A stretch of 64,000 bases of DNA from a virus (taxonomy: Duplodnaviria > Heunggongvirae > Uroviricota > Caudoviricetes). Location of the stretch: the IMG/VR virus record IMGVR_UViG_3300032050_000059, one strand, 5' to 3'. The translations under genes were made by a program, and so were the position numbers. This document shows positions 1 through 53,691 of this stretch, piece after piece (the first letter of the stretch is position 1; the number at the start of each line of letters is the position of its first letter). The notes under the pieces were generated by a model. The model searched no databases, was not told the DNA's origin, and saw only the letters and a list, made by a program, of their open reading frames with translations.

Positions 1-1636
1 TCACCCACTTACATTGTTTACCATCTACCCAGCGCTCTAGTCCTTCGGCTTGCTTACACACCATTTCACCCTTCAGCTTAATACGACGCACCCCAGGGAC
101 TCCACTAGCTTTACCAGCACTAATACGTTGCTTCTTTCTAGAATCAACAAATGTTTGCGGCACCTCTAGTGCATCTAAATCAATGAACGTACTCACCAAG
201 CTCTTGACAATCAATTGGAAATCTTGAATCAACTGACGCCATTGTGCCTTTGGATGGTTTCTAAGATTTAGGATGTTGTAATAATTGTCATAAGCCTGCA
301 CCATGCCCCCTGGTTTAGGACGAAGTTTGAAGGATTTCACCTTTCTAAACACATGCTCTTCTTCCCATTTACCTCCGTGTAAACTCTTGATATAGTCTTT
401 CTTAAGACCAGGAATACGCTCTCCCTCATAAACATACACCTTGTCAGCCATACGTTTTACAGATGTAATCTGATAATAATGCTTGGCATCACGCATTGCT
501 GACTTAGTCACTACAAACTTAGCCTCATACTCACCAAGGATGTATTCTTGTATCTTGGCAATACGAGAGGGCTCAATCAAACTTGTACCCTTGAACTTAG
601 GCTCAGCTATCTTAATTGTAGCAAACTTAGAAAGAGGATGTACATCCCAGGATGATGTGCCAAACTTAATCTCTCTACGGTCAGTGCTGAAATAGTTAAC
701 TATCTGTCTTACATCCTCTGTATCAGTGATGGTTTCATTGTACTTCTGGATGAAATAGTCAGCAGCTTCTTGTAGACGTTTAAGAATGACAACCTTAGCC
801 TCCTGTGTATATCTGATGGATTCTCTGTTAGGCGTAGGAAATATACCATCTGTCAGGCTGAATCTCAGCGCTACAGGAAGACCAATCCTCTCAATACCTA
901 GTTTGTTGAAGTCCATAGGATAATAAACATTATCCAAACAGATGTGCAGGTTGTTATCCTTGGCTAGTTCAGAGAACTGGAAATACTGGTGACGAACGAT
1001 TGTAAAATCATTATTAATGTCTTCCACATCAAAATACACGCTCTCAAAATAAGCTAGCTGTTCTCTAATCTTGTTCTTGAAGTCATACTTATCACGCCAG
1101 CTAACAGGAACAATCACCTTAACACCATTGGGCTGATCTGTAGGAGTTTCATAGAGAAGGTCAATAGTGTTGACATCTTCTCCCTCGTACATCATATACT
1201 TGCGTTCCATTCCATTCTTACGAGCAACGAAATAGAAGCTGGATGTATATGCTAGTGGGGCCTTAAAACCTAGACCCATCATGCCCAGCTCTGTAGAGCT
1301 ATTACGTTTGGTAGACTTACCATACTTGCTGATGATATTCTTTACGTCCTCAGCATCCAAACCAATACCAAAATCCTCCACGGAGAACTCAAATCCTCCA
1401 TCTTTTGTAGCTCTCAAGGCTACAACAATAGGCTTATCTACGCCTGCTCTTCTGTGACTATCCAGTGCATTTGATGCGCACTCACGGATAGTTGAACCTA
1501 TTGAGTCTGAATACAAATTCTTACTCAACATCTGCATCAACACCTGTGCAGAATCTAAGTCTAGGGACATCCCTATAGACTCGGTTGCCTCACCATCTTG
1601 GTGAATCATGGCTTCTTTCTGTTTCTCTAAAATCAT
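1..1636 (-). CDS. GHKL (Bergerat-fold) ATPase domain protein, 5' partial (start codon at 1636; the gene runs off the window start)
   Basis: Manual reverse translation from 1636 gives MILEKQKEAMIHQDGEATESIGMSLDLDSAQVLMQMLSKNLYSDSIGSTIRECASNALDSHRRAG... The N-box E-x-x-x-N-A-x-D (IRECASNALDS, Hsp90/MutL/topoII-like) is followed by glycine-rich G1/G2-like segments (DFGIGL, GLGFKA). ATG overlaps the stop of the upstream gene (ATGA). Confidence 0.45.
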   Translation of the reverse strand, partial: MILEKQKEAMIHQDGEATESIGMSLDLDSAQVLMQMLSKNLYSDSIGSTIRECASNALDSHRRAGVDKPIVVALRATKDGGFEFSVEDFGIGLDAEDVKNIISKYGKSTKRNSSTELGMMGLGFKAPLAYTSSFYFVARKNGMERKYMMYEGEDVNTIDLLYETPTDQPNGVKVIVPVSWRDKYDFKNKIREQLAYFESVYFDVEDINNDFTIVRHQYFQFSELAKDNNLHICLDNVYYPMDFNKLGIERIGLPVALRFSLTDGIFPTPNRESIRYTQEAKVVILKRLQEAADYFIQKYNETITDTEDVRQIVNYFSTDRREIKFGTSSWDVHPLSKFATIKIAEPKFKGTSLIEPSRIAKIQEYILGEYEAKFVVTKSAMRDAKHYYQITSVKRMADKVYVYEGERIPGLKKDYIKSLHGGKWEEEHVFRKVKSFKLRPKPGGMVQAYDNYYNILNLRNHPKAQWRQLIQDFQLIVKSLVSTFIDLDALEVPQTFVDSRKKQRISAGKASGVPGVRRIKLKGEMVCKQAEGLERWVDGKQCKWV

Positions 1637-2025
1637 TTTACTGGGAATTTAATACTGATTAATGCTTCTTTTGATTTTTTGTATCTGTCTAAGTCTTCTT
1701 GTTCTGTAAATATGCTCTCTGGATCTGCTATCTTAACAACACGAGACCCATTTAAATTTATACCACCTCCATAGATGTAGTCTTTGTAGAACAACTTAGA
1801 GCTAAATCCATGTTTTTTAAATCGTTCTCCAAGCCAGGTGTGGTTATCTAACTTACCAGCTTCCCAGTCTTTGAACTCCTTAAATCTATCTCCTGGAACA
1901 CCATAGTGATAGTATTGCACTGTGCCACTACCCTGTCCACAATACCACCCAAAGGATGTGTAATTGCTATTTGCCACCATAATAAAGTCTCCTATTTGGA
2001 GATCACCTCCATATCTTACTTTCAT
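1633..2025 (-). CDS. hypothetical protein (130 aa)
   Basis: ORF in an operon-like tight array with 4-nt overlaps to its neighbours. No recognisable motif. Confidence 0.5.
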   Translation of the reverse strand: MKVRYGGDLQIGDFIMVANSNYTSFGWYCGQGSGTVQYYHYGVPGDRFKEFKDWEAGKLDNHTWLGERFKKHGFSSKLFYKDYIYGGGINLNGSRVVKIADPESIFTEQEDLDRYKKSKEALISIKFPVK

Positions 2026-2369
2026 ATGTTATGCTTTTTGATTAACCAAATGTTTCTGTAATTGAGATCTACATACTTCTCAACAGTATAATTATCTGAA
2101 GCATTGTATTCTTTTCTAGTATATGTGCTTGTTCTACCATTGTATGTATGAGTGTAAGTTGTTTCTTTAATAGCCACCTTACACTTCACAGATTTGTAAA
2201 AGGTTTTGTTTGTTGGATTGTAAGTAGGTTGCACCTTCTTTGGTTCTACAGGTCTAATCACCTTAGCTCTGGCAATAGTTCCCTGTACAGAGTAGAGGAA
2301 CTCATCCCCCATCTGTAACTGTGTTACATCAATTTCCATAAATGTTTGTTTAGAAAGGTGGCTCTTCAT
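2022..2369 (-). CDS. hypothetical protein (115 aa)
   Basis: ORF overlapping both neighbours by a few nt. No recognisable motif. Confidence 0.45.
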   Translation of the reverse strand: MKSHLSKQTFMEIDVTQLQMGDEFLYSVQGTIARAKVIRPVEPKKVQPTYNPTNKTFYKSVKCKVAIKETTYTHTYNGRTSTYTRKEYNASDNYTVEKYVDLNYRNIWLIKKHNI

Positions 2370-3069
2370 AGAGCCAATAGATTGTGTAATTGTTGTTGTC
2401 TTTAATAATCTTGTTCACCTTGGTGAATACACCCTCTGTATCCCAATCAGTTTGCTTGTAAGAAGCACTGGCTGGATGACTGAGGACAAATGACCATGTG
2501 AACGGAGGAACGTAGCGCTCATATTTAGCAGCGTCCTTACCTAGAAATATAACAGGAACACCAGCTGTGTCTATTACATGCTCAAAGAAATACCTTGTGA
2601 AAGGTTCCCAAAGAGCAATGTGTGAGCCTGCCTTGTTGATTTCTGTGGTGAGCGCTGCGTTAAACATTAGCACGCCCTGGTGAGCTAAATAGCTAACATC
2701 TGGTGTCTTTTCATACTTAAGATTGAGCCCGTTATACAGGTCTCTCTCTATTCCACCATAGAATTGTTCTAGTGATGGCTGTAATGTCTTTGTAATAGAA
2801 CAACCCATAAGTAGGCCATCTGCTACATATACACCATTCTTAGCTGTGTGATAAGGACACATGCCCATCATCACCACCTTTAGATCATCCAGAGAAGTTT
2901 CTTTGAATGCTCTGAAGACATTAGAAGAAAGAGGGGCAATTTTCTTACCCCTCTTTGACTCCTTTTTGAGAAACTCATAGATCTTGTCGCATTCCTCACT
3001 CTCGATAAACGGTTGCATTTTTGTATGCCAGCTCTCATGAAACTGGTCTTTGAATTTCTCCCAAATCAT
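2350..3069 (-). CDS. ung: family-1 uracil-DNA glycosylase homolog with a non-canonical active-site motif (GMCPYH in place of GQDPYH)
   Basis: Colinear match to E. coli/human UNG motifs: KVVMMGMCPYH (cf. VVILGQDPYH), HQGVLMFNAALT (cf. QGVLLLNTVLT), ALWEPFT (cf. LGWETFT), GVPVIFLGKDA (cf. GVVFLLWGSHA), LSHPASAS (cf. HPSPLS). Confidence 0.75.
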   Translation of the reverse strand: MIWEKFKDQFHESWHTKMQPFIESEECDKIYEFLKKESKRGKKIAPLSSNVFRAFKETSLDDLKVVMMGMCPYHTAKNGVYVADGLLMGCSITKTLQPSLEQFYGGIERDLYNGLNLKYEKTPDVSYLAHQGVLMFNAALTTEINKAGSHIALWEPFTRYFFEHVIDTAGVPVIFLGKDAAKYERYVPPFTWSFVLSHPASASYKQTDWDTEGVFTKVNKIIKDNNNYTIYWLYEEPPF

Positions 3070-3851
3070 TAGAATTCCATTTCTAGTTGACGTAATACTG
3101 TTGGTTCAGCCACCTGAATCTCTGTAGGTGTCACCATAATCCCTGCAGCATTAACAAAGAAGCTATGCGCATTAATATGATTTCTCATCCAGAGGGAGGG
3201 ATGCACTTCCTTCATAGCATAAGTGGTGTGTTGATACAACTCCCACAAGCTACCTGGTGCACCATAATCAAAGGATGGATTATCAATCTGGCCTCTAATG
3301 ATGTTAAGCTGTGTGCTCTCAATAATGTTCTCCTCAATAATCATACGACCAACAAGCTCAGCTGTTGCACGCTTAGTGAGCTCTATATTCTTCATGGTCT
3401 CACGATCAGCCTGAATCCTTGTAAATGCTTCACCTGCTTGCTTGATGTATTCTGTGATAGCATTAGGTGTGAATGTTTGGATTTCTCCCTGATGCTTCTT
3501 TCTGAAGGCACCATAGTCACCTGATACACAACCATTTGAACAAATGAAGATGTGTGTACCAATAGCAAACTTCAAGCTCATAGACTTGTCATAGCTATTC
3601 TGCCAGCCAATTTGTAGCTGCATCTCATTATCTGCTACATTCTTGATGGTATATCTGCCATTAGCAACATTACCATCTCTGGCTGCAGAATACGATTCTG
3701 ATTCTAGTTCAAACCCTGCACCATGTATGCTCTCTAGTGTCAGGTCAATAAGCTGTTGATGTGTAACAGGCTTATAAGTTTTAGTTTCTTGTGGGATTTC
3801 TGCTCTCAACAGAATATCCTTTGCTGTAACGTAGGATTTCTTACTTTCCAT
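3069..3851 (-). CDS. hypothetical protein (260 aa), possibly a phage DUF932-like protein (weak)
   Basis: ORF with start/stop overlap to the UDG gene. No catalytic motif recognised. Confidence 0.4.
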   Translation of the reverse strand: MESKKSYVTAKDILLRAEIPQETKTYKPVTHQQLIDLTLESIHGAGFELESESYSAARDGNVANGRYTIKNVADNEMQLQIGWQNSYDKSMSLKFAIGTHIFICSNGCVSGDYGAFRKKHQGEIQTFTPNAITEYIKQAGEAFTRIQADRETMKNIELTKRATAELVGRMIIEENIIESTQLNIIRGQIDNPSFDYGAPGSLWELYQHTTYAMKEVHPSLWMRNHINAHSFFVNAAGIMVTPTEIQVAEPTVLRQLEMEF

Positions 3852-4855
3852 TATAATAGTTGTTTGTGTTTTAAATATGACTCAATTGCACCTAGTCCAT
3901 GTTCTTTGGCTAGATCAGCCCAATCTTTGATTCCTTCTGTCAGATAGTTACGTGGGACGTTAGCATACTCAAAATCAAACAGCTTGGTTATCATTTGACT
4001 ATTCTTTACACCCACCTCATCTGCATCAAAGGACAGGATTTGCCTGTCAGAGTTGGCCTTTAGATATTCTACATTCTCATCAGAAAAGCATGCTACACCC
4101 TCATTCTGGACAGCACAACAGCATGGAAATATCTTCTTCATCACCATATAATCCTTCTTGGACTTGTTGATGAATGCCACGCTGCAATTCTTTATATCCT
4201 CCTTACCATCCATGGTTGTAATAGGTACATTATTGGGCACCCATTTGCTTTTCTTGTCTCCAAAAGGACGATACACCTTCCAATGGCCATCATAGAGATA
4301 GCCAAATCTAAGTTCTGTATCCTTAATAGGAAACTTCTTTCTGTTGAGATAGAGCTGTTTGATAGAATAAACGTTGTTAGCTCTGAGATCGTCGAGACTT
4401 TGATAATACTGGTTCCAATAGGCTAGTTCCTCTTGTGTGAACTTCCTTGTAACCACCTGAATCAGGGAATAGCGCTTGCCCAGGTCCTCTGGTTGCTTAT
4501 ATTCCTTCTGAATAGCCTTGTATTTCTCTGTTGAGTTGCCTGGTAGAAATCCCAGTCCAAAGTCCTTATCAATCATTCTGAGCACATCGTCTATAGAGCT
4601 GAGATTGAACAGCATTTTGACAAATGTGAAGCAATCTCCACGCTTACTGGTATCACCAAAGTCTATAAAGGATAGAAACCCTCTCTTGTTCCCTATTACA
4701 AACGAGGGATTGTTCTCATTTCTGAAGGGAGATAGTGTTGCTTGGTTGATTTTCCAGTTCTTATCTGGCATGTAGAACCTGAATATATCATACTCTGATA
4801 TCTTGTTGAGCACAGCTTGAGGTGTGAGCCTCACCTTGATGTCACCTTGGATCAT
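3851..4855 (-). CDS. TOPRIM-domain protein, putative DnaG-type primase
   Basis: C-terminal segment QILSFDADEVGVKNSQMITKLF matches the TOPRIM DxD motif (cf. DnaG IILCFDGDRAGR). It sits in the replication gene cluster. The zinc-finger region is not evident. Confidence 0.4.
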   Translation of the reverse strand: MIQGDIKVRLTPQAVLNKISEYDIFRFYMPDKNWKINQATLSPFRNENNPSFVIGNKRGFLSFIDFGDTSKRGDCFTFVKMLFNLSSIDDVLRMIDKDFGLGFLPGNSTEKYKAIQKEYKQPEDLGKRYSLIQVVTRKFTQEELAYWNQYYQSLDDLRANNVYSIKQLYLNRKKFPIKDTELRFGYLYDGHWKVYRPFGDKKSKWVPNNVPITTMDGKEDIKNCSVAFINKSKKDYMVMKKIFPCCCAVQNEGVACFSDENVEYLKANSDRQILSFDADEVGVKNSQMITKLFDFEYANVPRNYLTEGIKDWADLAKEHGLGAIESYLKHKQLL

Positions 4856-5235
4856 TTGTAATCAATATACTGTTTTACTTCTTGAATATCTGAATCTGTT
4901 AGGATGTTTATCTTGCTCTTTAGACTGAAGCGCTCATCATTGAGATGATAGACACTCCTAGCCAATGAGATAAACTCTCCTTCAAAAATACCGTCTTTTT
5001 CAAGTTGTCTCAATCTATCCTCTACATTCCATAGTTGTGAATTCACTCCTATCAGATCCTCGTATAGGACAGAAATAGAATCATTTACAAGAAACGGATT
5101 GGCATTTCTAAACAGTCCTGAAAGTTCTTTTTCAACCTTTGCAAGCTTACTGGCATCTGTAATCTTGCTTTTCTTTATTTGCAGGATGCTGATCTTATCT
5201 ATCAGCTCACCCACACTCACTGGAATTGTTACCAT
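4852..5235 (-). CDS. hypothetical protein (127 aa), coiled-coil
   Basis: ORF with start/stop overlap to the neighbour. Confidence 0.4.
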   Translation of the reverse strand: MVTIPVSVGELIDKISILQIKKSKITDASKLAKVEKELSGLFRNANPFLVNDSISVLYEDLIGVNSQLWNVEDRLRQLEKDGIFEGEFISLARSVYHLNDERFSLKSKINILTDSDIQEVKQYIDYK

Positions 5236-5293
5236 AATAAAAATAAAGCCCCCACCATTTTACTGATGAGGGCTATTTGGAGGTTAAGGGAAT

Positions 5294-6157
5294 TTAATAA
5301 TCATCACCATCATCAGAAAGTACAGCATCTGACGCCACGAGGTTATCATCTGCATTATACTCCTTCAGATCACGGAGAATATAGAAGTCTCTACATCCAT
5401 ATTCACCTGTAACATTGAGCACGAAGCGCTCATGTGGTTTAAGGTCTTTTAGCTTCTTAGCACGAAGACCACTTTGAACTGTACCATCATTATAGTTGAT
5501 GAGACGGAAGTTCTTCAGAGCATAAGCTGGCAAGAATGCCTTGTTGTATATACCCTGATATTCTTTGTTCTCACCATCTTTCTCTTTCATGATGATTGTA
5601 GCAAGAGCACCAATGTTTGTGCAATAAGCACCATCCACTTGTGCTTTCAGCTCGCTAACATTACCTTTCATTAGCTTCTTCCAGTCAGCTTGTAGAACAG
5701 CGTTCTCTTTCATGAAGTCAAGCTTACCCAACCAGGTGCGCAAGAATTCATAAAGTTCTTCTTCTCCTACATATGCAACACGGTAGTCACGCTTTGTGAA
5801 CCAGTCAGCTAAATCATTAGCATCTGCAGCCCAAGCACATCTACCAACATTATTGATATATTGTTTCTTAGAACCGTCTTTGTTTTCACGCTCTTTGTCC
5901 TCTAGGAAGAATGAAGCCTTGAACTTATCTCCGCTCTTGACATCCTTCAACCAGACATCAACACGCAGATAGGTGTTCTTATCCCTGCTCTGTCCTAAAT
6001 ACTCTGTAGCTTTACTGTTCTCAGGAAGTTCAATTCCTAATACTTCTTTGTACTCTTCTGCTGTAGGATTGATGGCTATTACCTCAGCCTCAAACAAACC
6101 TACCTTCTTTGCGAATTCTTGTACTTGTTTCTGTTCTCTTTGATCACCTTGAATCAT
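5294..6157 (-). CDS. putative single-stranded DNA-binding protein
   Basis: 287 aa with an acidic C-terminal tail LSDDGDDY typical of SSB C-termini. It sits between the primase-like and ATPase/helicase genes. Confidence 0.4.
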   Translation of the reverse strand: MIQGDQREQKQVQEFAKKVGLFEAEVIAINPTAEEYKEVLGIELPENSKATEYLGQSRDKNTYLRVDVWLKDVKSGDKFKASFFLEDKERENKDGSKKQYINNVGRCAWAADANDLADWFTKRDYRVAYVGEEELYEFLRTWLGKLDFMKENAVLQADWKKLMKGNVSELKAQVDGAYCTNIGALATIIMKEKDGENKEYQGIYNKAFLPAYALKNFRLINYNDGTVQSGLRAKKLKDLKPHERFVLNVTGEYGCRDFYILRDLKEYNADDNLVASDAVLSDDGDDY

Positions 6158-6192
6158 TGCTTTGAATTTTAAATGTTAATTAATGTGTGCTT

Positions 6193-6864
6193 TTATTTAT
6201 AATACTCGTCTATTGTTTCTGATACTAGCTTCAGATTGTTTGGCACCTTCACATCAGTGAACATACCATCTGGGCTCTTAGCAGGATATTTTCTAAACCT
6301 GTTGGTTAGGAAATAATAATTGGATGTACCGTCTTTGCTCTCCTCAACAAATGTGTATAGACACACTGTCAACAGACCTTCTAAGACAATCTGATTGTCA
6401 ATCATCTTACCAGCTGTCTTAATCTTGTATCCTATAATCTCACCACCATCTTCAATAGTTTCAGGATGTGTGAAATAGAACACTTTAAGATCGTCACGAA
6501 GAGCACGGGCTGTTCTAAAAAGATCAACCATGTCTCTAGCCATCAGTGTAAACTTGGTGAAACCAGTTTCTGTGGCTTTTGCCATCATGTTAAAACCCAT
6601 GATGTAGTTGCTGTCCTCAATAATAATATTCTTGATGTGAGGAGCATCGTTGGATAGCTTGCGCAATCTCTGTGAAATCAGGTTTGCGTCATCTATCTCA
6701 TCATAATTTCTGTTCTCTCTGTTGTACAATTTCTCTGCGCCTTTGAATGGTAATTCTTTCTTTGCTACGTTGATGATGTACGTTTCTTTCGGGTCCAGAT
6801 GTTTGATTGAAGTGGACTTGCCTGTACCAGTTGGGCCCACAATTCCGATTAATTTACTTGCCAT
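6193..6864 (-). CDS. P-loop ATPase (Sak4/AAA_24-like RecA-fold phage ATPase)
   Basis: N-terminal Walker A IGIVGPTGTGKST. Size of about 220 aa is typical of phage AAA_24 ATPases next to helicase genes. Confidence 0.5.
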   Translation of the reverse strand: MASKLIGIVGPTGTGKSTSIKHLDPKETYIINVAKKELPFKGAEKLYNRENRNYDEIDDANLISQRLRKLSNDAPHIKNIIIEDSNYIMGFNMMAKATETGFTKFTLMARDMVDLFRTARALRDDLKVFYFTHPETIEDGGEIIGYKIKTAGKMIDNQIVLEGLLTVCLYTFVEESKDGTSNYYFLTNRFRKYPAKSPDGMFTDVKVPNNLKLVSETIDEYYK

Positions 6865-6922
6865 GTGCTTTGATTTAAAATATGTAGTTTAATGAGCTAT
6901 AAAGATACAAAATCCCTATGAA

Positions 6923-7999
6923 TTAAACAAATTTTATCTTGTTTTTATCAAAGAATTCTAGGGCTTTTTTCAGCCATTTTCTCTCTACATCCTCGTTTGT
7001 ACAAATGATGTATATCTTGGCCTTCTTATCTGGATTATCATACTCCATAGCCATACATCTGTTAATCTTCTGAGCCAGGTTTTCTGCATTACTATCGAAA
7101 TAGTTGATAATCACCTTGTTTAAGGGTTTATACGTAACTCCTGTGTTACCTATCTTTACAACAGCCATGTGATTACCCTCACCTGCAGCAAACTTCTCAA
7201 ACATATCCTTCTCACCCTTCTTTGAGTGATAGGAAGGAATGCCTAATGCATCAGCTATTTTAGTGACACCACAGAACACTAGAATGCGTTCATCCTTGAA
7301 GTTCTGTAATATTCTCCTGGTGCACTCACGCTTGGCTAAACTGTTCTGGATTATTCTCATCCTTGCGAGCCTAAGAAACATTGTGTTTTTACCCTCACGC
7401 TCAGATTGATTTATACCCCACGTGTATGCATCAAATTGTTTTTTCTCTGTTCTCATCTTACCCTTGTAGTCTTGCTTCACTCTGTCATCCAAAGGAACTA
7501 GCTTTACAACTATCTCATAATCAACAATTACGCCTTCCTGGATAGCTTGCTCAATAGTGTACGTAGCAATGACACACAAATCTAGGTGATCACAGAGTGT
7601 GTCCTCTGTCCATCTGGATAAGGTGCCTGTTAGTCCTAATACAACATCATTATGCTTGAGCAGGTCCTTGGTTGCAAATAGCTGATTATCAGAGAGTAAG
7701 TGAATCTCATCTATAATCACCATATCATACTTGTTATCCTTGTACTTATGGAGAGATAGATGGGTGGTATATGTGACACCACTGTCATCATATCCACGTT
7801 TCTCAAAGTCTGCTTGCCAGGCAGCTTTAATCTTTGTGTCTGGATAGGCAATAAGAATGTTCGATGGTTTGGTCTTCTCAAGGATGTTGATGGTAGTGTA
7901 AATCTTGCCAAATCTTGGGCATAGATTCAATATACCAAACTTCCCTGCTTTAATCCACACATCAGCAAACTCAGCTTGCCTTTGGTCTCTTAGTGTCAT
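6923..7999 (-). CDS. SF2 DEAD/DEAH-box helicase
   Basis: Motif II DMVIIDEIHLL (DEIH), motif III LGLTGT, and an N-terminal GKIYTT P-loop-like segment. Confidence 0.65.
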   Translation of the reverse strand: MTLRDQRQAEFADVWIKAGKFGILNLCPRFGKIYTTINILEKTKPSNILIAYPDTKIKAAWQADFEKRGYDDSGVTYTTHLSLHKYKDNKYDMVIIDEIHLLSDNQLFATKDLLKHNDVVLGLTGTLSRWTEDTLCDHLDLCVIATYTIEQAIQEGVIVDYEIVVKLVPLDDRVKQDYKGKMRTEKKQFDAYTWGINQSEREGKNTMFLRLARMRIIQNSLAKRECTRRILQNFKDERILVFCGVTKIADALGIPSYHSKKGEKDMFEKFAAGEGNHMAVVKIGNTGVTYKPLNKVIINYFDSNAENLAQKINRCMAMEYDNPDKKAKIYIICTNEDVERKWLKKALEFFDKNKIKFV

Positions 8000-8241
8000 A
8001 GTATTTTTATAAATTGTCCATTCCTGTCAAGCAGTTGCACCACACCAAACTTAGCATCATACTCCTCGATAATACTATCAAGTATATCACGAGGATTACG
8101 CCACATAGGTAGATAGGTGAGAAGCTCCTGACCAGATAGCATTCTACCATGCTTAGAGCTGTCATAGTTCTCCCTATACTTTTCATATATTAGTATAGTA
8201 GGATTGGTCCTCCTTATTATCAGGTAGTCTTCTCTTGTCAT
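7996..8241 (-). CDS. hypothetical small protein (81 aa)
   Basis: ATG overlaps the helicase stop (ATGA). It partially overlaps the alternative ORF 8183..8404 in another frame. Confidence 0.3.
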   Translation of the reverse strand: MTREDYLIIRRTNPTILIYEKYRENYDSSKHGRMLSGQELLTYLPMWRNPRDILDSIIEEYDAKFGVVQLLDRNGQFIKIL

Positions 8242-8406
8242 TAAAAAAGATTGACACGCTCCAGAAAAGCCATTCTAGATTCACCACTGTGTACTTGTCA
8301 GCAGCATCAGGACTTCTTAGGATTGTAATGGTTGGTAATAGAATAATCTGCCAATAGGATTCTTCCTTACAGGGAACTGTAGAGAAGGTTTTGATACTCA
8401 TCATAG

Positions 8407-9468
8407 TTATTTGTTTAAGAAATAGGTTTTGTTTGTCACTGCCTCATAATCAGAATCTGTAATAGCAGATTTCTTAGGCAACTCTTTGAACATACCAATC
8501 TGGCCCATAAAGCCTAGACCAATACGAACATCATCTTCACCATAGGAATTCTTTATCAGCCTAAGGTTTCTAAAATACTTAGCACCATACTGATCCTTCA
8601 GCTTATTCAGGTCATAACCACTAGGGTCAGCCACCTTATAACGCATAGGATCAAACAGCGCTAACACAACATCAGCATCATTCTGAGTCTGTGAACTCTC
8701 AGCAAAATCTTCTAGCTGAGGCTCAACATCACCATTCTTTATCCTGATGGGATTGCTAATATCACGATTGAACTGACTCACAACCACTGGCGTATATCCA
8801 TAGAAGTCACGAGCATATCTAAGCTCATCTGACATCTTATCAATAGCCTGCTTCTTGGTAGTCTGGTCCTTGGTTGTCTTCAATAGACCAATATGATCTA
8901 TGATGACAATAGTGATTTCATTCTCATGATTGGGGAAATAGCGCTTATTGAACTCATCCACCTGTTCAATCTTGCCATGCTGCAGAGCGTGAGCTTTAAG
9001 CTCCTTAGCAATACCTACAGCGTTCTCTGGACCATCGATGATTGTGATGACATCATCCATCCTCTGGATGTAATCTTCATACATCAAGAACAAATCATGC
9101 TCATCCTTGGACATCTTATCATTCCAGCCCAATAGCTTGCTTACGGGGATGATAATCCCTTGGTCAATGAATATCTTCCTACTCACCCATTTAGCTAGCT
9201 TATATGTTCTAGAGCGCTCCATAGAGCGATATATGATGCGTAGCTTAACGCCTGGATCTGGTTGACTGATATACCAATCAAATGGATTCAGGACAAACGC
9301 ATCATCAATAAAACTTGTCTTACCAGAGCCTGTTAAACCACCTACAAGGAAGTATATGCTCTTACGGATGCCAATATACCTATTGAGCCTATTAAAGCCC
9401 ATGGGTATACCGTTATTCCTCCCTTCTAGGCCAAGCTCTACTTCTTTCTTAAGTAGTTCAAAACTCAT
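8407..9468 (-). CDS. DnaB-like replicative helicase (RecA-fold C-terminal domain)
   Basis: Walker A GGLTGSGKTSF, Walker B-like VIIDHIGLL, and the H4 motif VVVSQFNRD (Q..R) typical of DnaB/T7 gp4 helicases. Confidence 0.65.
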   Translation of the reverse strand: MSFELLKKEVELGLEGRNNGIPMGFNRLNRYIGIRKSIYFLVGGLTGSGKTSFIDDAFVLNPFDWYISQPDPGVKLRIIYRSMERSRTYKLAKWVSRKIFIDQGIIIPVSKLLGWNDKMSKDEHDLFLMYEDYIQRMDDVITIIDGPENAVGIAKELKAHALQHGKIEQVDEFNKRYFPNHENEITIVIIDHIGLLKTTKDQTTKKQAIDKMSDELRYARDFYGYTPVVVSQFNRDISNPIRIKNGDVEPQLEDFAESSQTQNDADVVLALFDPMRYKVADPSGYDLNKLKDQYGAKYFRNLRLIKNSYGEDDVRIGLGFMGQIGMFKELPKKSAITDSDYEAVTNKTYFLNK

Positions 9469-10091
9469 ATATCAGTTCCTCCTACGGGTTTATCAGTTTC
9501 TTCAACCTTTCCACCCTCTTTAATTAATTCAATGAATGGTTCAAAGCTACGCTGATTCAGATAGGTGAAAGAGTTCTGCATATAACTAAGTCTGTTAGTG
9601 CTAGTTTTAACAGAGTTCTCTTTCTTCTGAAGGACATCAAAGTTCAGCGCTTCTATCATTTGAGCTGCTGTATATTCTCCCTCAAGAAGAATCTTATCAA
9701 ACCTGAGCCTGCATTCATCTTTATTCTGTCTCAAGCTTCTTGCGCCTGTGAACTTCTTACCCTTGTGGGTAAATGTATCAGTGCCTGGATATGCTTTCCA
9801 CCACTCTTCAAACTCTGTAGTGGCAGGCTTACGCTTAACAATCTTTGTTGCTTCTTTGCTTTCTATAAATTTAAGGAGCTCTGTCCCTTCTGTCGTTATC
9901 TTCTCATCACTAGTGGATATGAGTCCTTTTCTAATTAAAGTTTGATAGAGCGCAGCGATCTTCATGCTTCCTTCACAGAGAGGCTGAACATCCATCTGCT
10001 GCTCTATCAACTTTAAGAGATAAATAACGTCCAAGGAATAGCCTTTTTTAATCAGCTCTTCAAAATGGTAGGGCGTTATCTTTAAGTTCAT
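9465..10091 (-). CDS. hypothetical protein (208 aa)
   Basis: ORF overlapping the DnaB-like gene start by 4 nt. Its position suggests a helicase-associated function. No motif found. Confidence 0.4.
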   Translation of the reverse strand: MNLKITPYHFEELIKKGYSLDVIYLLKLIEQQMDVQPLCEGSMKIAALYQTLIRKGLISTSDEKITTEGTELLKFIESKEATKIVKRKPATTEFEEWWKAYPGTDTFTHKGKKFTGARSLRQNKDECRLRFDKILLEGEYTAAQMIEALNFDVLQKKENSVKTSTNRLSYMQNSFTYLNQRSFEPFIELIKEGGKVEETDKPVGGTDI

Positions 10092-10249
10092 CTGGCTGGA
10101 GTTTATTCTCGTAAATCACTGTAATCTTTGCAGGAAGTCTATTCTCTTCCTCTATAATTTCCTGCATAATTTCTTCTTCTGTTCTAGCTTTGTCAGCCTG
10201 CAAATATACAACATCTTTCAGGTAATCCCGCTCAAAATCTTCAGAAAAA

Positions 10250-10801
10250 TTAACAACTTGCCCATCCAAAGAATACGTATTTTCCTTCTTTTTCATTTGA
10301 TGACTTTTTGTAGGAGATGTTAGCTACAATAGGCTTTCCCTTCTCCAATGTTTTCTCCATCACAACTGTTGTGGGAGATTGATGTTTCTCTGTGTAAGCT
10401 CTTGCAGCTTTCACTGCATCTCCTTTCGTGTTATGTCTGCTTAATTCGCCTTCACGCTTATGCACAACATACTTGAGCACCCATTTCTTGGTGCCAGGAG
10501 TTACAATGTGTTGCACCTGTGTCTTTATTTTATTACCATTAGTCACAGGTTCCTCTAGACAGATACATTCTGCACCTTGGAACTTAGTAAGTTCATCGAT
10601 GCGCTTCTCAATGTAGTTATACAAAGGAAGTTTTGCAGCTTTATATTCTTTTGTTACATCTCTGAATCCTGGCGTAGAATTGATGGCACCACTATATCCT
10701 TGTTGGTGGCCATATTCTGCTTCAGCATCATCAACTGCGTTCTGGTATGCTTCTTTAGCAGACATACCTCTGCTGTTCACTGTAAATGATTGTGATCCCA
10801 T
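10250..10801 (-). CDS. hypothetical protein (183 aa)
   Basis: ORF. A 78-aa ORF at 10060..10296 partially overlaps it. Confidence 0.4.
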   Translation of the reverse strand: MGSQSFTVNSRGMSAKEAYQNAVDDAEAEYGHQQGYSGAINSTPGFRDVTKEYKAAKLPLYNYIEKRIDELTKFQGAECICLEEPVTNGNKIKTQVQHIVTPGTKKWVLKYVVHKREGELSRHNTKGDAVKAARAYTEKHQSPTTVVMEKTLEKGKPIVANISYKKSSNEKEGKYVFFGWASC

Positions 10802-10813
10802 AAATAATTGATT

Positions 10814-10957
10814 TTAATTGTCATCATCCTCATGCCAAAATGTAGTGGTTGGATCATCGATATCCTCTTCTTCCTCATATAGAGGGGCTTTGTTTATCTC
10901 ATAGGCAAGCCATACCCAGGCAGTCACTAAGACCGCAATAAAAATGTAAATGAACAT
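10814..10957 (-). CDS. small membrane protein (47 aa): one hydrophobic helix plus an acidic tail. Coordinates are approximate.
   Basis: Manual translation gives MFIYIFIAVLVTAWVWLAYEINKAPLYEEEEDIDDPTTTFWHEDDDN. It falls below the ORF-track length cutoff and fills the gap between 10801 and 10963. Confidence 0.3.
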   Translation of the reverse strand: MFIYIFIAVLVTAWVWLAYEINKAPLYEEEEDIDDPTTTFWHEDDDN

Positions 10958-10962
10958 AAGGA

Positions 10963-11394
10963 TTAGTCTTTAATGCGAAGCCCATATCCCAGGTCAAACC
11001 ACTGGAATGTTTGTTCAGCTTTGCCTTTGTTGAATTTAAACACCTTCCTCAGTAGAGGAATAGCGTAAGACTTGAACAGCTCGTGCTGTTGTGTGGTCAT
11101 TGTGAAGTTGTGAAACCACATTTCATCCTTTTTAGCATCCTCTATGGTTTTACCCACCATATTCAGCTGATACTCAATTAGATGGTCCTGTATATTTGTT
11201 CTATTGATGGTCACCTTGGGCTGTGGGAAGAATCTATTGAGCCTTATTTGCTCTAGGAATTCTTTTTTATCCCACACTTCCACATGTGGACGCTCTTCAA
11301 TAAAAGACAGCTTGACAATATCCCCTTTAATGTAACTGATGAAACAAGGAGTACCAATGTAGTCCTTGTACTTGTCTCCTTTTGAAAGTTTCAT
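10963..11394 (-). CDS. hypothetical protein (143 aa)
   Basis: ORF that abuts the polymerase gene stop. Confidence 0.4.
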   Translation of the reverse strand: MKLSKGDKYKDYIGTPCFISYIKGDIVKLSFIEERPHVEVWDKKEFLEQIRLNRFFPQPKVTINRTNIQDHLIEYQLNMVGKTIEDAKKDEMWFHNFTMTTQQHELFKSYAIPLLRKVFKFNKGKAEQTFQWFDLGYGLRIKD

Positions 11395-13352
11395 TAGAAT
11401 AAGGTTAACTGATTAGGATTAACTACCACCTTGCGCTTCTTGCCTTCAGATGCTATCTTATAGATGATCTTCTCAGCACGCTCAATGTAATAGTCATAAT
11501 TAATGTTATCCAGAGGATGTTTTTTGTCTAGGTGATTGCATACGGTGGCTAACCACTCACCAGCTTCCACTTGTGAAACACTGGCAGCACCACTTTGACT
11601 GTCCTCATTTTTAACCTTTAGGAGCTTTTCTCCTGTATTGGAGATGTAATAACGAATGAGCTTATTGTATAGCTTCTTCTCACCTGTTGACTTATCTATT
11701 CCTTCATAATGGAAATCCTTGCTAGCCTTTTGTCTCAGGCAGAAGTCAAAGATATTATTATGATTCCTAATAGTATGCTCAATAGGTATATCACGAACAA
11801 AATATTGTTCAAGAGCCATTGGTACAATGCGTGCTGACTTGTTCTTATGAAGCTCGAAATCTGTGAGGAAATCGCCTTTCTTCTTAATTTCTCCATCTGT
11901 TTTTATCGCAAGATAGTCATTTACAGTGGAAAATATAATTTTTTGATAGTCAGCTCGTTCTAGCTCATATTTGGTCAGTTCAGACCACCATTTGTTTATC
12001 TCATGCATCCTATCGATGAGTGTCTTCTTTATTCTTATAGTGACACCATCTGTATTTGCAGAGATAACACGTATACCAGCTAGTTCATAGGCCTCAATAA
12101 GCATCATCAGGCTCAGTTCACCTGTAATAGTGGTGAACATAGTGAGCTGCCTATCATAAATCCAGGATTGCATATCACTAGATTTGCCATAAACTGAGTT
12201 TACAGCAAGCTTCAGTGCACCTACAATACCCTTGATTTTCTTATCCTTCTTAGCTAAAGGCTTGAGTTCCAATCGCTTCTCAAACATGGCTTGATAGCCT
12301 CTGAGAAACGCAGATCCTAAGTGTTGTGGATAACGGCCATTATTAATGATGATGGCTGGATAATAGGAACTTACGTCCCAGTCTATAATCTCATGCTCAT
12401 CATCAGCTTCAAATATCTTAGGTTTATTCTCTGTATGCAGTCCGCCCTTCATGAAAGAATATACATTATCATAGAAATGTAGCTCCTCCTTAAAGTCATC
12501 CTGCAGCCCTAAGCTTAATCTCTTTATTCTCTTGAGGAAGTCTTGTAGCTCTTTGGTCTGAAACTCCACATATGGAGCAATACAGTTCTTTACAGCTATA
12601 GTCTTCCTAAAGAAGCCCTTCTTGGGCAGTTCTTTATATTCTATTCCCTTCTCCTGGCAATAGAACTTCTTAATCATCTCATCACCTATCTTACTATCAG
12701 AATAGTTGAGACAAGGGATACCGAACTCTTGCTCGATATCCTGTCTCAGCTCAATCTTATTATCTCCCTTATACAAGGGATGATCTGTTTGTCCAATAGT
12801 AACTAAATAGAATTGATAAGTGGCCCACACATCATTCAAACAATAACCCGTGATGGTAAAAATATCATCGCTGGTCATGTCTGTCTTGTTGTGATCAATA
12901 GGCATCTCCTCAATATTCTCAAGGTCCATCTCAAACTCTAATCTCTTCAGGCTCACTCTTCTATTCTTGTTGTCAAAGTGGTGTATCCTGAATAAGTCTA
13001 TTTGTTTGAGCGTGAGGTCTGTCTCACGATACTCTGGAAATACATCATGATTAGCATCATCAATAACATCAGATGCTTTCTGATTTATCCTGGCTGTAAT
13101 CTCTAGACTAGAGAGCTCATGCCAATTCTCATAGTTGCGTATCACCCATTCTATCACCTGAGAGTCAAAGCGCAAGTTGTTGTAGCCCACCCAATGATAG
13201 TCTTTGTACTTCTCTGTGAAATTAATAAACGCATCCAGATTGTTCTCATCCTTATTCACCTTGAACACTCTGTATGGTTCTTGAGGAATCAACGCCACCA
13301 CAAGGAAATATTCTTTAAGCGTCTCTATGTCATAAATGATTACATTGTCCAT
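11394..13352 (-). CDS. family-B DNA polymerase with 3'-5' exonuclease domain
   Basis: Exo I IIYDIETL. Pol motif A DWDVSSYYPAII (Dx2SLYPS-like). Motif B KLAVNSVYGKS (Kx3NSxYG). Motif C-like ISANTDGV. Confidence 0.8.
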   Translation of the reverse strand: MDNVIIYDIETLKEYFLVVALIPQEPYRVFKVNKDENNLDAFINFTEKYKDYHWVGYNNLRFDSQVIEWVIRNYENWHELSSLEITARINQKASDVIDDANHDVFPEYRETDLTLKQIDLFRIHHFDNKNRRVSLKRLEFEMDLENIEEMPIDHNKTDMTSDDIFTITGYCLNDVWATYQFYLVTIGQTDHPLYKGDNKIELRQDIEQEFGIPCLNYSDSKIGDEMIKKFYCQEKGIEYKELPKKGFFRKTIAVKNCIAPYVEFQTKELQDFLKRIKRLSLGLQDDFKEELHFYDNVYSFMKGGLHTENKPKIFEADDEHEIIDWDVSSYYPAIIINNGRYPQHLGSAFLRGYQAMFEKRLELKPLAKKDKKIKGIVGALKLAVNSVYGKSSDMQSWIYDRQLTMFTTITGELSLMMLIEAYELAGIRVISANTDGVTIRIKKTLIDRMHEINKWWSELTKYELERADYQKIIFSTVNDYLAIKTDGEIKKKGDFLTDFELHKNKSARIVPMALEQYFVRDIPIEHTIRNHNNIFDFCLRQKASKDFHYEGIDKSTGEKKLYNKLIRYYISNTGEKLLKVKNEDSQSGAASVSQVEAGEWLATVCNHLDKKHPLDNINYDYYIERAEKIIYKIASEGKKRKVVVNPNQLTLF

Positions 13353-13513
13353 TATTCTTCTATTTTCCAGTAGTGATCACATTCTTTCTTCTCCTCATTG
13401 TATGGAGGATTAACAAAATAGGATTGTCTGTATTCATTAGGTGTAGCTGTATATCTATAACAGTCTTCCTTCAGAGGACAATCTTTGCCTTCGCACATTG
13501 TGATATCGGCCAT
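13352..13513 (-). CDS. small Cys-rich protein (53 aa) translationally coupled to the polymerase gene
   Basis: Manual translation gives MADITMCEGKDCPLKEDCYRYTATPNEYRQSYFVNPPYNEEKKECDHYWKIEE. Its stop TAA overlaps the PolB ATG (TAATG), and its ATG overlaps the HNH stop by 1 nt. Confidence 0.35.
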   Translation of the reverse strand: MADITMCEGKDCPLKEDCYRYTATPNEYRQSYFVNPPYNEEKKECDHYWKIEE

Positions 13514-13929
13514 TAGATTTCGTTTTTAATATACTTGATAATATTCTCTAATATGTCTAGAGTTAATGATGACTTTAGAAGATTGGCTTTTCGAGATATC
13601 ACTCTGATATTACCTTTTACATATCCTTTATTGTTATCAACTCTATCTAAAGACATTGCATTTGGTAAATACCCATCGCCTTTTGCTAGTGTTAATCCAA
13701 GAATAGGACACTTTTCTGGTATGATTATATCCTCTTTTTCTATACTAAACTCAGTTCCATATTTTCTGGCTCTGGTTCTAGCAACATACCATAAATAATA
13801 TTGAGGGTCATTCTTAAACTTAACCTTTCTAGACGTCTCATATAAAACCTTATTGCCTTGTGAACGTTTTTCCTTATTTTTCTTTCTATACTCTATATCG
13901 TAGAGTCTCTTTTTTTCCTTGGATGTCAT
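13513..13929 (-). CDS. HNH homing endonuclease (HNH_3-type)
   Basis: C-terminal motif SLDRVDNNKGYVKGNIRVISRKAN. It is free-standing and immediately upstream of the polymerase gene. Confidence 0.75.
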   Translation of the reverse strand: MTSKEKKRLYDIEYRKKNKEKRSQGNKVLYETSRKVKFKNDPQYYLWYVARTRARKYGTEFSIEKEDIIIPEKCPILGLTLAKGDGYLPNAMSLDRVDNNKGYVKGNIRVISRKANLLKSSLTLDILENIIKYIKNEI

Positions 13930-19825: not shown

Positions 19826-20251
19826 TTAGGCGTTCATCAAGCTGTTGATGAGTTCATCGCTTGCTGGTGCAACAGCAAGTGTTTCATAACGCTTGATTTG
19901 GGAGTTAACCCTTGCATCTTCAAGTTTCTCATCACGAAGAGAAGACCATTGCATCTTGTTAATGTAAGTGCTGAAATTGAGTGTATCAATTTCTGTGGCT
20001 GTTACATTACCATCATCATCAACTCTATCAATAGTTGATGTTCCAGGGATGAGTGTGATGCTTTTAACATTACCGCTCTTAAAATCGGTGTTAAAAGGAT
20101 GGTCATCTGGTACAGAGAATACTACATTGTTTCTCTGATAACGAGTGAAGGTCTTGCCATCTTTTGCTCTTTGACCTTTTTTGTACTTCAAGCCACTTTG
20201 TACAAAAGCAACTTCGTAAACACTTTCATCTTGCAACTTAATTGGTTCCAT
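19826..20251 (-). CDS. hypothetical protein (141 aa), first gene of the leftward arm
   Basis: ORF adjacent to the divergent switch region. Confidence 0.45.
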   Translation of the reverse strand: MEPIKLQDESVYEVAFVQSGLKYKKGQRAKDGKTFTRYQRNNVVFSVPDDHPFNTDFKSGNVKSITLIPGTSTIDRVDDDGNVTATEIDTLNFSTYINKMQWSSLRDEKLEDARVNSQIKRYETLAVAPASDELINSLMNA

Positions 20252-20733
20252 AATGCCCTTTCAGTTTTTTGTGTGGTGACTCCACATTTTACAGTTAATA
20301 ATTATTAAGGAAAAGAACAGGGGGGCTATCCCGACTCTCCAAATTCTGCTGGGGGTTTCTGGATGGAATACCCTCCCCTCCCATGCACATAATAGGTTTT
20401 TGGTTCCACGTGGAACATGGGGGGATTGTCAACCTATAGGCTTACATATGGGGGTGTTTTGTCAGCTTATAGGTTTACAAAAAAAATTTTGTTGGTTATA
20501 TGGAGGATGTGTTATAACTTTGGGGCGGTGGGTGGGTTAGGTGATAGTTCCGTCCTATGGATATATGAGCAATTGGTGGTTTGAAGTGGTTGACGGATGT
20601 CTCTGAGCTAAGAATATAAGAATGGGGAAGGTGTATCTGGTTGAAAATAAGACATAATATAGCAATAGTATAAAAGATTGTATTTGACTATGTTATAAAG
20701 TCTTCCTATCTTTGTATCAACTACATTAACAAT
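20252..20733. promoter_or_regulatory. divergent intergenic switch region: G-runs, direct repeats, a perfect palindrome and a host-type promoter
   Basis: The 14-bp perfect palindrome GTTCCACGTGGAAC (20403-20416). Two roughly 30-bp direct repeats, GGGGGGATTGTCAACCTATAGGCTTACA (20419-20446) and GGGGGTGTTTTGTCAGCTTATAGGTTTACA (20450-20479). Several further G5-6 / C-rich runs. Local GC is well above the genome background. Confidence 0.55.
20683..20714 (+). promoter_or_regulatory. Bacteroidetes sigmaA-type promoter (-33 TTTG / -7 TAnnTTTG) for the rightward operon
   Basis: TTTG (20683-20686), then a 20-nt spacer, then TATCTTTG (20707-20714), about 20 nt upstream of ATG 20734. This matches the Bacteroidetes consensus spacing of 19-21 nt. 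Confidence 0.5.
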
Positions 20734-21078
20734 ATGAAGGTCATATTACAAAAGCTGAAGAAACAGGAGGAGGATAGCTATCTGGTAGCAGAGAGGTATT
20801 ACACCATCCTGTCAGCTATTAATGATCTTAAGCTGACACAAAGGGAAATACAGCTTTTGGCTTTTACGGCTATTAGGGGGAATATATCCTATGCCAATAT
20901 AAGACAGGACTTCTGTGATAAGTATGGCACCACCAACCCCTCTATAAACAACATCATTTCCAGGCTGAAGAAGATGGGGGTGCTGGTGAAGGATGGGACA
21001 AAGGTGAAGGTGAACCCCAAAATACTATTAAACTTTGAAAACGATGTCACCCTTGAAATCAGACTTGTTCACAGATAA
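20734..21078 (+). CDS. hypothetical protein (114 aa), possible HTH regulator
   Basis: First ORF of the rightward arm. Contains the segment LTQREIQLLAFTAIRGNISYANI. Confidence 0.4.
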   Translation: MKVILQKLKKQEEDSYLVAERYYTILSAINDLKLTQREIQLLAFTAIRGNISYANIRQDFCDKYGTTNPSINNIISRLKKMGVLVKDGTKVKVNPKILLNFENDVTLEIRLVHR

Positions 21079-21085
21079 TAAGCCC

Positions 21086-21502
21086 ATGAGCCTTCCTGTT
21101 AAGGATTGGATCATTAGAAAGCTGGCTGTGAAGATGATGCTGGGGGAGAAGACCATTGAGGCTGTTGTCAACCATCAGTTTCAGGAAGCTAACAAGGCGC
21201 TGACAAAGCATAAGAGTTTGGAGATCAGTGGGTTTGGCAAGTTCTTCTTCAATGAGGGAAAAGCTGTCAAGCAGATGGCGAAGTTTGAAAGCCAGAAAGA
21301 GCTGTTCAGCAGGATTTTGGAGAACGAGGTGTTGACGGACCAGAAAAGGAAGTCGATAGAGCTCAAGCTGCAAATAGCCCTAGATAACATAAGAGACTTA
21401 AAACCAAAGATGTATGTCGATGATTTCCCAGATTTACGAGGGGTGGAGGAACAATTTGATACCCCCAGAGAAGATGAGGACAGCGATCATAGAGACGAGT
21501 AA
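21086..21502 (+). CDS. hypothetical protein (about 139 aa; internal Met start chosen to avoid overlap)
   Basis: ORF 21035..21502 trimmed to the MSLPVKDW start. Confidence 0.35.
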   Translation: MSLPVKDWIIRKLAVKMMLGEKTIEAVVNHQFQEANKALTKHKSLEISGFGKFFFNEGKAVKQMAKFESQKELFSRILENEVLTDQKRKSIELKLQIALDNIRDLKPKMYVDDFPDLRGVEEQFDTPREDEDSDHRDE

Positions 21503-53690: not shown

Positions 53691-53691
53691 T

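Follow-up and report, generated by a model that had tools for sequence, protein, structure and literature searches.

A UNG-like protein with the catalytic aspartate replaced is maintained in the replication arm of a crAss-like phage

The 64,000-nucleotide stretch of DNA analysed here (the window; IMG/VR record IMGVR_UViG_3300032050_000059) belongs to a crAss-like phage and comprises a minus-strand replication arm and a plus-strand structural arm. We describe a gene of the replication arm whose predicted product resembles the family-1 uracil-DNA glycosylases (UDGs) of the UNG type, with Cys standing where the catalytic Asp is expected. The gene and the residues that characterise it are located as follows:

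2350..3069, minus strand: UNG-fold gene, 239 amino acids with an ATG start, assigned to the [C/S/A]PYH class of the phage family-1 UNG clade
2848..2865, minus strand: water-activating loop G69-M70-C71-P72-Y73-H74 (canonical GQDPYH), from the DNA reading and the alignment
2857..2859, minus strand: Cys71 codon TGT, in the catalytic Asp column
2848..2850, minus strand: His74 codon, the His of PYH
2803..2823, minus strand: segment A83-D84-G-L-L-M88-G89 (canonical AHGLCFS), in which Met88 corresponds to the stacking Phe158 and Asp84 replaces His154
2659..2661, minus strand: Asn137, equivalent to human Asn204 (uracil specificity) and kept; GVLMFN aligns to GVLLLN
2461..2478, minus strand: loop H198-P-A-S-A-S203 (canonical HPSPLS), with the catalytic His, His198, kept at 2476..2478

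The minus-strand translation of 2350..3069 reads VVMMGMCPYH and LSHPASAS. In a phmmer search against PDB the best match was 3tr7 (E=1.6e-16), and about 55 of the 60 chains among the matches listed were UNGs. The NCBIfam Ung models also matched the protein (best E=4e-34), as did, over its full length, the PHROG family phrog_12143, which is labelled 'unknown function' (5.8e-33). An AlphaFold2 model built with 50 homologs reached a predicted local distance difference test score (pLDDT) of 96.1 and a predicted template modelling score (pTM) of 0.91; its top Foldseek matches in PDB were all family-1 UNGs, with template modelling (TM) scores of 0.75-0.82, and a structure search of BFVD gave the same UNG picture. 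Sequence matches and fold model thus assign the predicted product to the family-1 UNG superfamily, in agreement with the original prediction. In the phmmer alignment to the PDB chains GMCPYH lies on GQDPYH without a gap, Cys71 falls under the Asp, and no alternative Asp could be placed in the catalytic column of the aligned loop. The proposed exchange of the catalytic Asp and the adjacent Gln for Cys and Met was thereby borne out.

Residues kept with respect to family-1 UNG are Pro146, Tyr147, His148, Ser169, Asn204, Gly246, His268 and Pro269 (human numbering); in the numbering of the phage protein, the DNA-backbone-contacting Ser99 and Gly177 are kept. Changed are Asp145 to Cys, Gln144 to Met, Phe158 to Met, Ser247 to Lys and Ser270 to Ala; the column of the intercalating Leu272 holds Ala or Ser, depending on the alignment, and the loop after PYH is longer by 4 residues than in canonical UNG. 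The match had been described as 'motif-for-motif', which is an overstatement, as Phe158, Ser247, Ser270 and Leu272 are changed too. The protein also misses all the NCBIfam Ung equivalog cutoffs (best match NF003592, 118.3 bits against 162; TIGR00628, 92.6 against 185.75) and, narrowly, the gathering score of Pfam PF03167 (UDG; 23 against 24.3). Because Asp145, Leu272 and Phe158 are absent and the curated thresholds are failed, the predicted protein ought to be kept out of the Ung equivalogs.

The loop recurs widely. A large protein database held 1457 homologs of the UNG-like protein, and among the best 120 (75-88% identity) the loop was GMCPYH in 119 and GLCPYH in 1. For a codon survey we combined the window gene with 80 IMG/VR loci of 61-90% identity, many of them on contigs of 105-119 kb. 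GMCPYH was found in 61 of these 81 sequences, GMAPYH in 9, GLCPYH in 8, GFCPYH in 2 and GTSPYH in 1, so that Cys is present in 71/81 (codons TGT in 54 and TGC in 17), and the His of PYH is invariant in all 81. The pairwise ratio of non-synonymous to synonymous substitution rates (dN/dS) against the closest relatives was 0.06-0.13. Proteins of the Ala type (GMAPYH, 9 loci) are 82-85% identical to those of the Cys type, and the GMAPYH and GTSPYH orthologs, 70-85% identical, are under equal constraint. The replacement of Asp is fixed and under purifying selection; homolog recurrence, codon variation and dN/dS all mark it as genuine and selected. That it should stem from a sequencing or assembly error or belong to a decaying pseudogene has next to no probability, given a loop shared by 119 of 120 independent metagenomic homologs, a Cys written in two synonymous codons in 71 of the 81 sequences, dN/dS of about 0.1, a full-length open reading frame (ORF) and a confident fold. 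The recurrent motif, the use of both Cys codons and the low dN/dS effectively exclude a sequencing artefact. The thiol is favoured yet not indispensable, because Ala replaces Cys in relatives that are 82-85% identical.

The position of the protein within its clade was analysed by an exhaustive HMMER search of representatives clustered at 50% identity, which returned 5907 matches, the best 150 of which were analysed. The best annotated relatives were UDGs of Crassvirales and of phages of Flavobacterium and Cellulophaga, none of which reached 33% identity. Among them crAss001 gp74, cr128_1 and FpV4 gp54 (about 30% identity) share with the query the phage UNG branch, the HPA-type 'Leu' loop and the location in a replication module; they differ from its [C/S/A]PYH(T) class in having kept the Asp in a GQDPYP loop, with Pro at the third position after it (+3). 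A neighbour-joining tree rooted with the E. coli and human UNGs gave Asp as the ancestral state and no fewer than 17 switches of the loop column from an acidic to a non-acidic residue or back. The residues at column 145 and at +3 are coupled (Fisher p=1.7e-12, uncorrected for phylogeny): the pairs were D-P in 41 cases, C-H in 20, S-H in 10, E-A/S in 10 and D-H in only 2. Counted by the residue in the column, His stands at +3 in 19/22 representatives with Cys, 8/19 with Ser and 2/4 with Ala. The class signature is G-[ML]-[CSA]-P-Y-H-T, the equivalent of His74 being usually followed by that of Thr75, and the alignment, searched for a compensating acidic residue specific to the [CSA]PYH class, contained none. 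The ancestral loop of the branch is GQDPYP, and in the query's class its Asp has given way to Cys, Ser or Ala, accompanied by the gain of a His three residues further. P0148, P0151, P0166, P0219, P0241, P0261 and other representatives show a third recurrent loop, G[MQ]EPY[AS], with Glu for Asp and, coupled to the Glu, Ala or Ser at +3. This loop deserves notice in that hUNG (human UNG) D145E is reported to be nearly inactive (PMC8730318).

Conservation of the pocket was compared between loop classes in 138 full-length representatives:

Asp/Glu class, 76 representatives: Tyr147 in 76, Asn204 in 74, His268 in 70
[C/S/A]+His class, 29 representatives: Tyr147 in 28, Asn204 in 29, His268 in 29
Other non-acid class, 33 representatives: Tyr147 in 30, Asn204 in 27, His268 in 18

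Since Tyr147, Asn204 and His268 are kept in the [C/S/A]+His class, the class of the query does not lie on a decay path and is a second configuration, maintained no less tightly than the Asp form. By these comparisons the protein represents a derived sub-type, kept by selection, within the family-1 UNG branch of crAss-like and related Bacteroidota phages.

These data bear on the proposed thiol chemistry. UDGs of families 2, 3 and 5 do without an Asp in this place, and the query might likewise be a fully competent glycosylase in which a Cys71 thiolate and a His74 imidazolium stand in for Asp, either as electrostatic element or general base or with the thiol as a covalent S-glycosyl nucleophile. 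Such an enzyme would suit the intact pocket, the Cys of 119 of the 120 near homologs with its synonymous codon variation, and the pairing of Cys with His, which is tighter than that of Ser or Ala. The GMAPYH and GTSPYH orthologs, however, show the thiol to be dispensable, and the Leu wedge and two DNA-pinching Ser residues are missing, so that we consider full competence unlikely. Of the thiol-based mechanism suggested at the outset as one possibility, an obligatory form is unlikely in view of the same orthologs and of the C/S/A variation of the column across the clade.

A change of substrate has less in its favour. Met in place of Gln144 and of Phe158 alters the lining of the pocket, and with its initial G-M the loop recalls the SMUG1 motif GMNPGP, as might be expected if the protein, as glycosylase or as reader, had turned to another base or a modified one tied to an unusual composition of the phage DNA. 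The residue that keeps out 5-substituents, Tyr73, and the one that reads O4 and N3-H, Asn137, are nevertheless invariant (28/29 and 29/29 in the class), and the Phe158 column is also variable (F, M, L) in Asp-bearing relatives. Pfam and PHROG scans covered, of a genome of roughly 110 kb, 27 window ORFs and, in the closest genome, L001, 8 ORFs from the 10 kb beyond the left edge of the window. In these ORFs they recognised no gene for base modification, dUTPase or thymidylate synthase and yielded only replication proteins, endonuclease VII-like and HNH proteins, a GHKL ATPase and ribonucleotide reductase. Altered specificity is disfavoured because Tyr and Asn are invariant, and we regard it as quite improbable; the suggested link to unusual base content found no base-modification gene in the replication arm or just beyond to support it.

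Besides the UNG-like gene, the replication arm encodes a DNA polymerase (phrog_1252), a replication initiator, DnaB, a superfamily 2 (SF2) helicase, a Sak4/AAA_24 ATPase, a primase and a DUF932 protein. The genes relevant here are:

2-1636, minus strand, cut by the left end of the window: GHKL (HATPase_c) protein, downstream of the UNG-like gene; 766 amino acids in relatives
3069..3851, minus strand: DUF932 gene (Pfam PF06067, 4.8e-10), directly upstream of the UNG-like gene
3851..4855, minus strand: DNA primase gene (phrog_12622, 3e-33)
8407-9468: DnaB gene
11394..13352, minus strand: DNA polymerase (phrog_1252, 3.3e-141) with the family-B motifs DVSSYYPA, KLAVNSVYG and NTDG, at the head of the replication arm
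13513-13929, minus strand: endonuclease VII / HNH-like gene (phrog_3322, 1.3e-32), adjoining the polymerase gene

The primase, DUF932 and UNG-like genes are joined by TAATG stop/start overlaps at 3067-3071 and 3849-3853 (minus strand), which implies their translational coupling. The primase lies upstream of the UNG-like gene in 73/80 loci, and in the annotated phage FpV4 it stands directly upstream of the UDG gene. DUF932 was found by tblastn in 59/80 loci. In 14 loci whose upstream stretch is long enough to contain it, it is absent and the primase adjoins the UNG-like gene. Between primase and UNG-like gene, DUF932 is thus an optional insertion. We considered gp75 of crAss001, upstream of the UDG gene of that phage, as a DUF932 counterpart, and it proved unrelated to the DUF932 protein of the window. 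The window polymerase had no Pfam or PDB sequence match, and megablast of positions 1-12000 against annotated phages gave no match and hence no close cultured relative.

The setting also speaks to a role in counter-defence. An inactive UNG look-alike could shield uracil or apurinic/apyrimidinic sites from host Ung or soak up a host factor; a preprint counts the UDG of crAssphage as a likely anti-defence gene but gives no data for this (PMC10983915), and a uracil pocket kept in the absence of Asp would fit such a decoy. PADLOC, however, gave no match for the UNG-like or the DUF932 protein, the gene is placed with the primase in the replication module and translationally coupled to it rather than located in an early or anti-defence cluster, and stoichiometric shielding of the genome is implausible. 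We therefore hold a decoy to be highly improbable.

Furthermore, 21 representatives lack His268, and often Asp and Asn204 as well. These 21 retain at a frequency of at least 0.9 the residues W14, P46, F55, G85, H150, W154, F157, G177, F215 and W232, and their root-to-tip distances are only slightly longer. With the replication-module neighbourhood taken as a primase and/or DUF932 gene upstream and/or a GHKL-ATPase gene downstream, the setting of the window gene was also found, partly by tblastn, for five decayed relatives, while a sixth lies in the replication module of a more distant phage:

P0128 (loop GPPPYV, N204H, H268D): PolA, DnaB, SF2 helicase, AAA_24, primase and DUF932; GHKL-ATPase downstream
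P0131 (3-kb contig): DUF932 upstream, GHKL-ATPase downstream
P0150: GHKL-ATPase directly downstream
P0164: PolA, DnaB, SF2 helicase, AAA_24 and primase upstream
P0184: primase and DUF932 upstream; GHKL-ATPase and a rIIB-like gene downstream
P0217: sixth decayed relative, in the more distant phage replication module

In lineages other than that of the query the scaffold would thus be kept in its slot without glycosylase chemistry. Retention of both scaffold and slot after catalytic loss points to a core role that is independent of catalysis, and by analogy it suggests that the UNG fold was recruited to the replisome for such a role, either independently of the poxvirus D4 case or as its ancestor. 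The window-type PolB occupies the polymerase slot in all 39 of the 39 near-clade loci in which that slot is visible. PolA was seen in the slot of two decayed relatives (polymerase coordinates 1-136 in L084 and 1-1436 in L091), and four further contigs did not include the slot. Polymerase swapping could go along with the condition of the active site in the UNG-like protein, an anecdotal observation from these two cases. A search of IMG/VR for the DNA of P0128 found none, and in a protein search P0128 was an isolated branch with its nearest relatives about 50% identical.

The query probably acts as a slow or non-cutting, uracil-recognising replication accessory and not as an ordinary repair enzyme. 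Its uracil pocket is complete (Tyr73, Asn137 and His198), and the role in uracil-DNA binding or sensing that had been put forward for it fits the invariance of these three residues. As the most plausible explanation, which we advance tentatively from the comparative data, the protein would combine uracil recognition, attenuated excision and a replisome-linked core role that does not depend on excision. At the replication fork it would, expressed together with the primase, flip and recognise uracils of the phage DNA. The hydrolytic step would be strongly slowed and not canonical: His74, possibly as a Cys71-His74 pair, may position the water that is normally activated by Asp145, and the pair would perhaps restore the negative charge. 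In hUNG, His148 lies next to the catalytic water, possibly as a helper of Asp145, and slow cleavage still took place in crystals of the D145N/L272R mutant (PMC8730318). The core selected function would be that of a replisome accessory like poxvirus D4, independent of base excision. In vaccinia virus, D4 has an essential, catalysis-independent role in replication as a subunit of the processivity factor with A20 (PMC1936997). Phage PolA-UDG fusions scan the template ahead of the polymerase, and UDGs encoded in trans have been proposed to dock likewise (preprint 10.1101/2025.03.26.645540).

The protein might, on the other hand, be a catalytically dead pseudo-glycosylase, a binder of DNA or perhaps of uracil-DNA, or a pure replisome scaffold, that never excises. 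With the catalytic Asp gone, Cys, Ala and Ser are interchangeable in its place, the Leu272 wedge, Phe158, Ser247 and Ser270 are changed too, and clade members that have lost every catalytic residue persist in the slot; to this are added the near-inactivity of hUNG D145 mutants (PMC8730318) and the precedent of D4 (PMC1936997). Yet His268, Asn204 and Tyr147 are nearly invariant in the class and decay in the truly dead relatives, and the tight co-selection of His74 with the loss of Asp is hard to explain unless the loop has a chemical job. Complete inactivity is in our view a serious alternative, but clearly less probable than a composite of recognition, attenuated excision and a replisome role.

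Several points weigh against that composite. Almost no activity is left in hUNG with D145E or D145N (PMC8730318), and by this measure the phage protein could be wholly inactive. That relatives have Ala or Ser in place of the Cys shows that no chemical need exists for its side chain, which agrees just as well with an absence of catalysis. Asp84, at the position of human His154, is found in about 90% of the phage clade (as ADGLAFSC), with or without the catalytic Asp, and may be an alternative acid. The coupling statistics ignore phylogeny and the tree is a neighbour-joining tree only, and the branches of the decayed relatives are long and for the most part isolated. An interaction with the polymerase, the primase or DUF932 is purely hypothetical. 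A D4-like subunit of a phage replisome is, by analogy, a testable idea.

A bolder form of the replisome role is also conceivable. The primase-adjacent UNG-fold protein might be a replisome subunit whose conserved task is to ride on, or read, the template, its excision being tunable in evolution: on in the Asp form, re-wired in the Cys/Ser-His form and off in the sister lineages. It would then be the bacterial-virus counterpart of poxvirus D4 or of the uracil read-ahead pocket of archaeal PolB. We consider this extension speculative and rather unlikely.

Comparison with known systems delimits the protein further. With E. coli Ung and human UNG2 it shares the fold (TM about 0.8) and full-length homology, and it differs by the substitution of Asp145, Gln144, Phe158, Ser247, Ser270 and Leu272 and by the longer loop after PYH. 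Poxvirus D4/E4 is likewise a divergent viral family-1 UNG with an altered loop, GIDPYP, and its HPA loop HPAARDR is like that of the Asp-type phage relatives (motif table in PMC1936997; vaccinia D4 sequence confirmed against PDB 8q3r_D). The phage clade resembles the D4 case in that it keeps the scaffold after catalytic loss, and the polymerase of the window phage is of family B, as is poxvirus E9. In contrast, D4 keeps its Asp68 and is an active glycosylase, the sequence match between D4 and the query is weak (E about 0.02), and on the phage side an A20-like partner was not identified here and a polymerase interaction is hypothetical. Mutants such as hUNG D145N and E. coli D64N, which bind uracil-DNA, also combine loss of the water-activating Asp with an intact uracil pocket; the query differs from them in being natural and selected, in having Cys (or Ala/Ser) instead of Asn and in its further clade-wide changes. 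The UDG fold excises without Asp at this position also in family 2 (MUG/TDG), family 3 (SMUG1) and family 5 (UDGb), and in UdgX a loop His can take on new chemistry. These are, however, separate families with loops such as GINPG, GMNPGP and GLAPA, whereas the query is by its matches unambiguously family-1.

In the literature searched we found neither the motif GMCPYH or GLCPYH nor a description of an Asp-less class of family-1 UNG in phages, and papers on crAss-like phages list the gene simply as 'UDG'. The annotation 'uracil-DNA glycosylase' is routine in the abundant crAss-like and aquatic Bacteroidota phages, and for the [C/S/A]PYH class it probably misstates the activity. For enzymology, the clade offers a natural series on one scaffold and in one slot, from Asp with Pro through Cys, Ser or Ala with His to full catalytic loss, and with it a ready-made experiment on what the water-activating loop contributes to UNG. 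The coupling of Asp to Pro and of Cys to His, and the graded loss of catalysis, are of interest for base-excision repair as well.

The GHKL gene downstream of the UNG-like gene was also found in relatives, at 11045-13345 in L001, 4710-8432 in L092 and 9625-12875 in L084. In L092 it is followed by a rIIB-like gene, which suggests a rIIA/rIIB-like pair, and in L084 and L085 it is apparently split by a LAGLIDADG homing-endonuclease gene. In the window, the strand switch between the two arms at about 20000-21500 coincides with a sign flip of the GC and AT skews and is a candidate divergent promoter or origin. The structural arm is closed by a plus-strand ORF (53677-64000) of at least 3441 amino acids that runs off the right end of the window; by its size and position it may be related to the giant virion-associated RNA-polymerase-type proteins of crAss-like phages.

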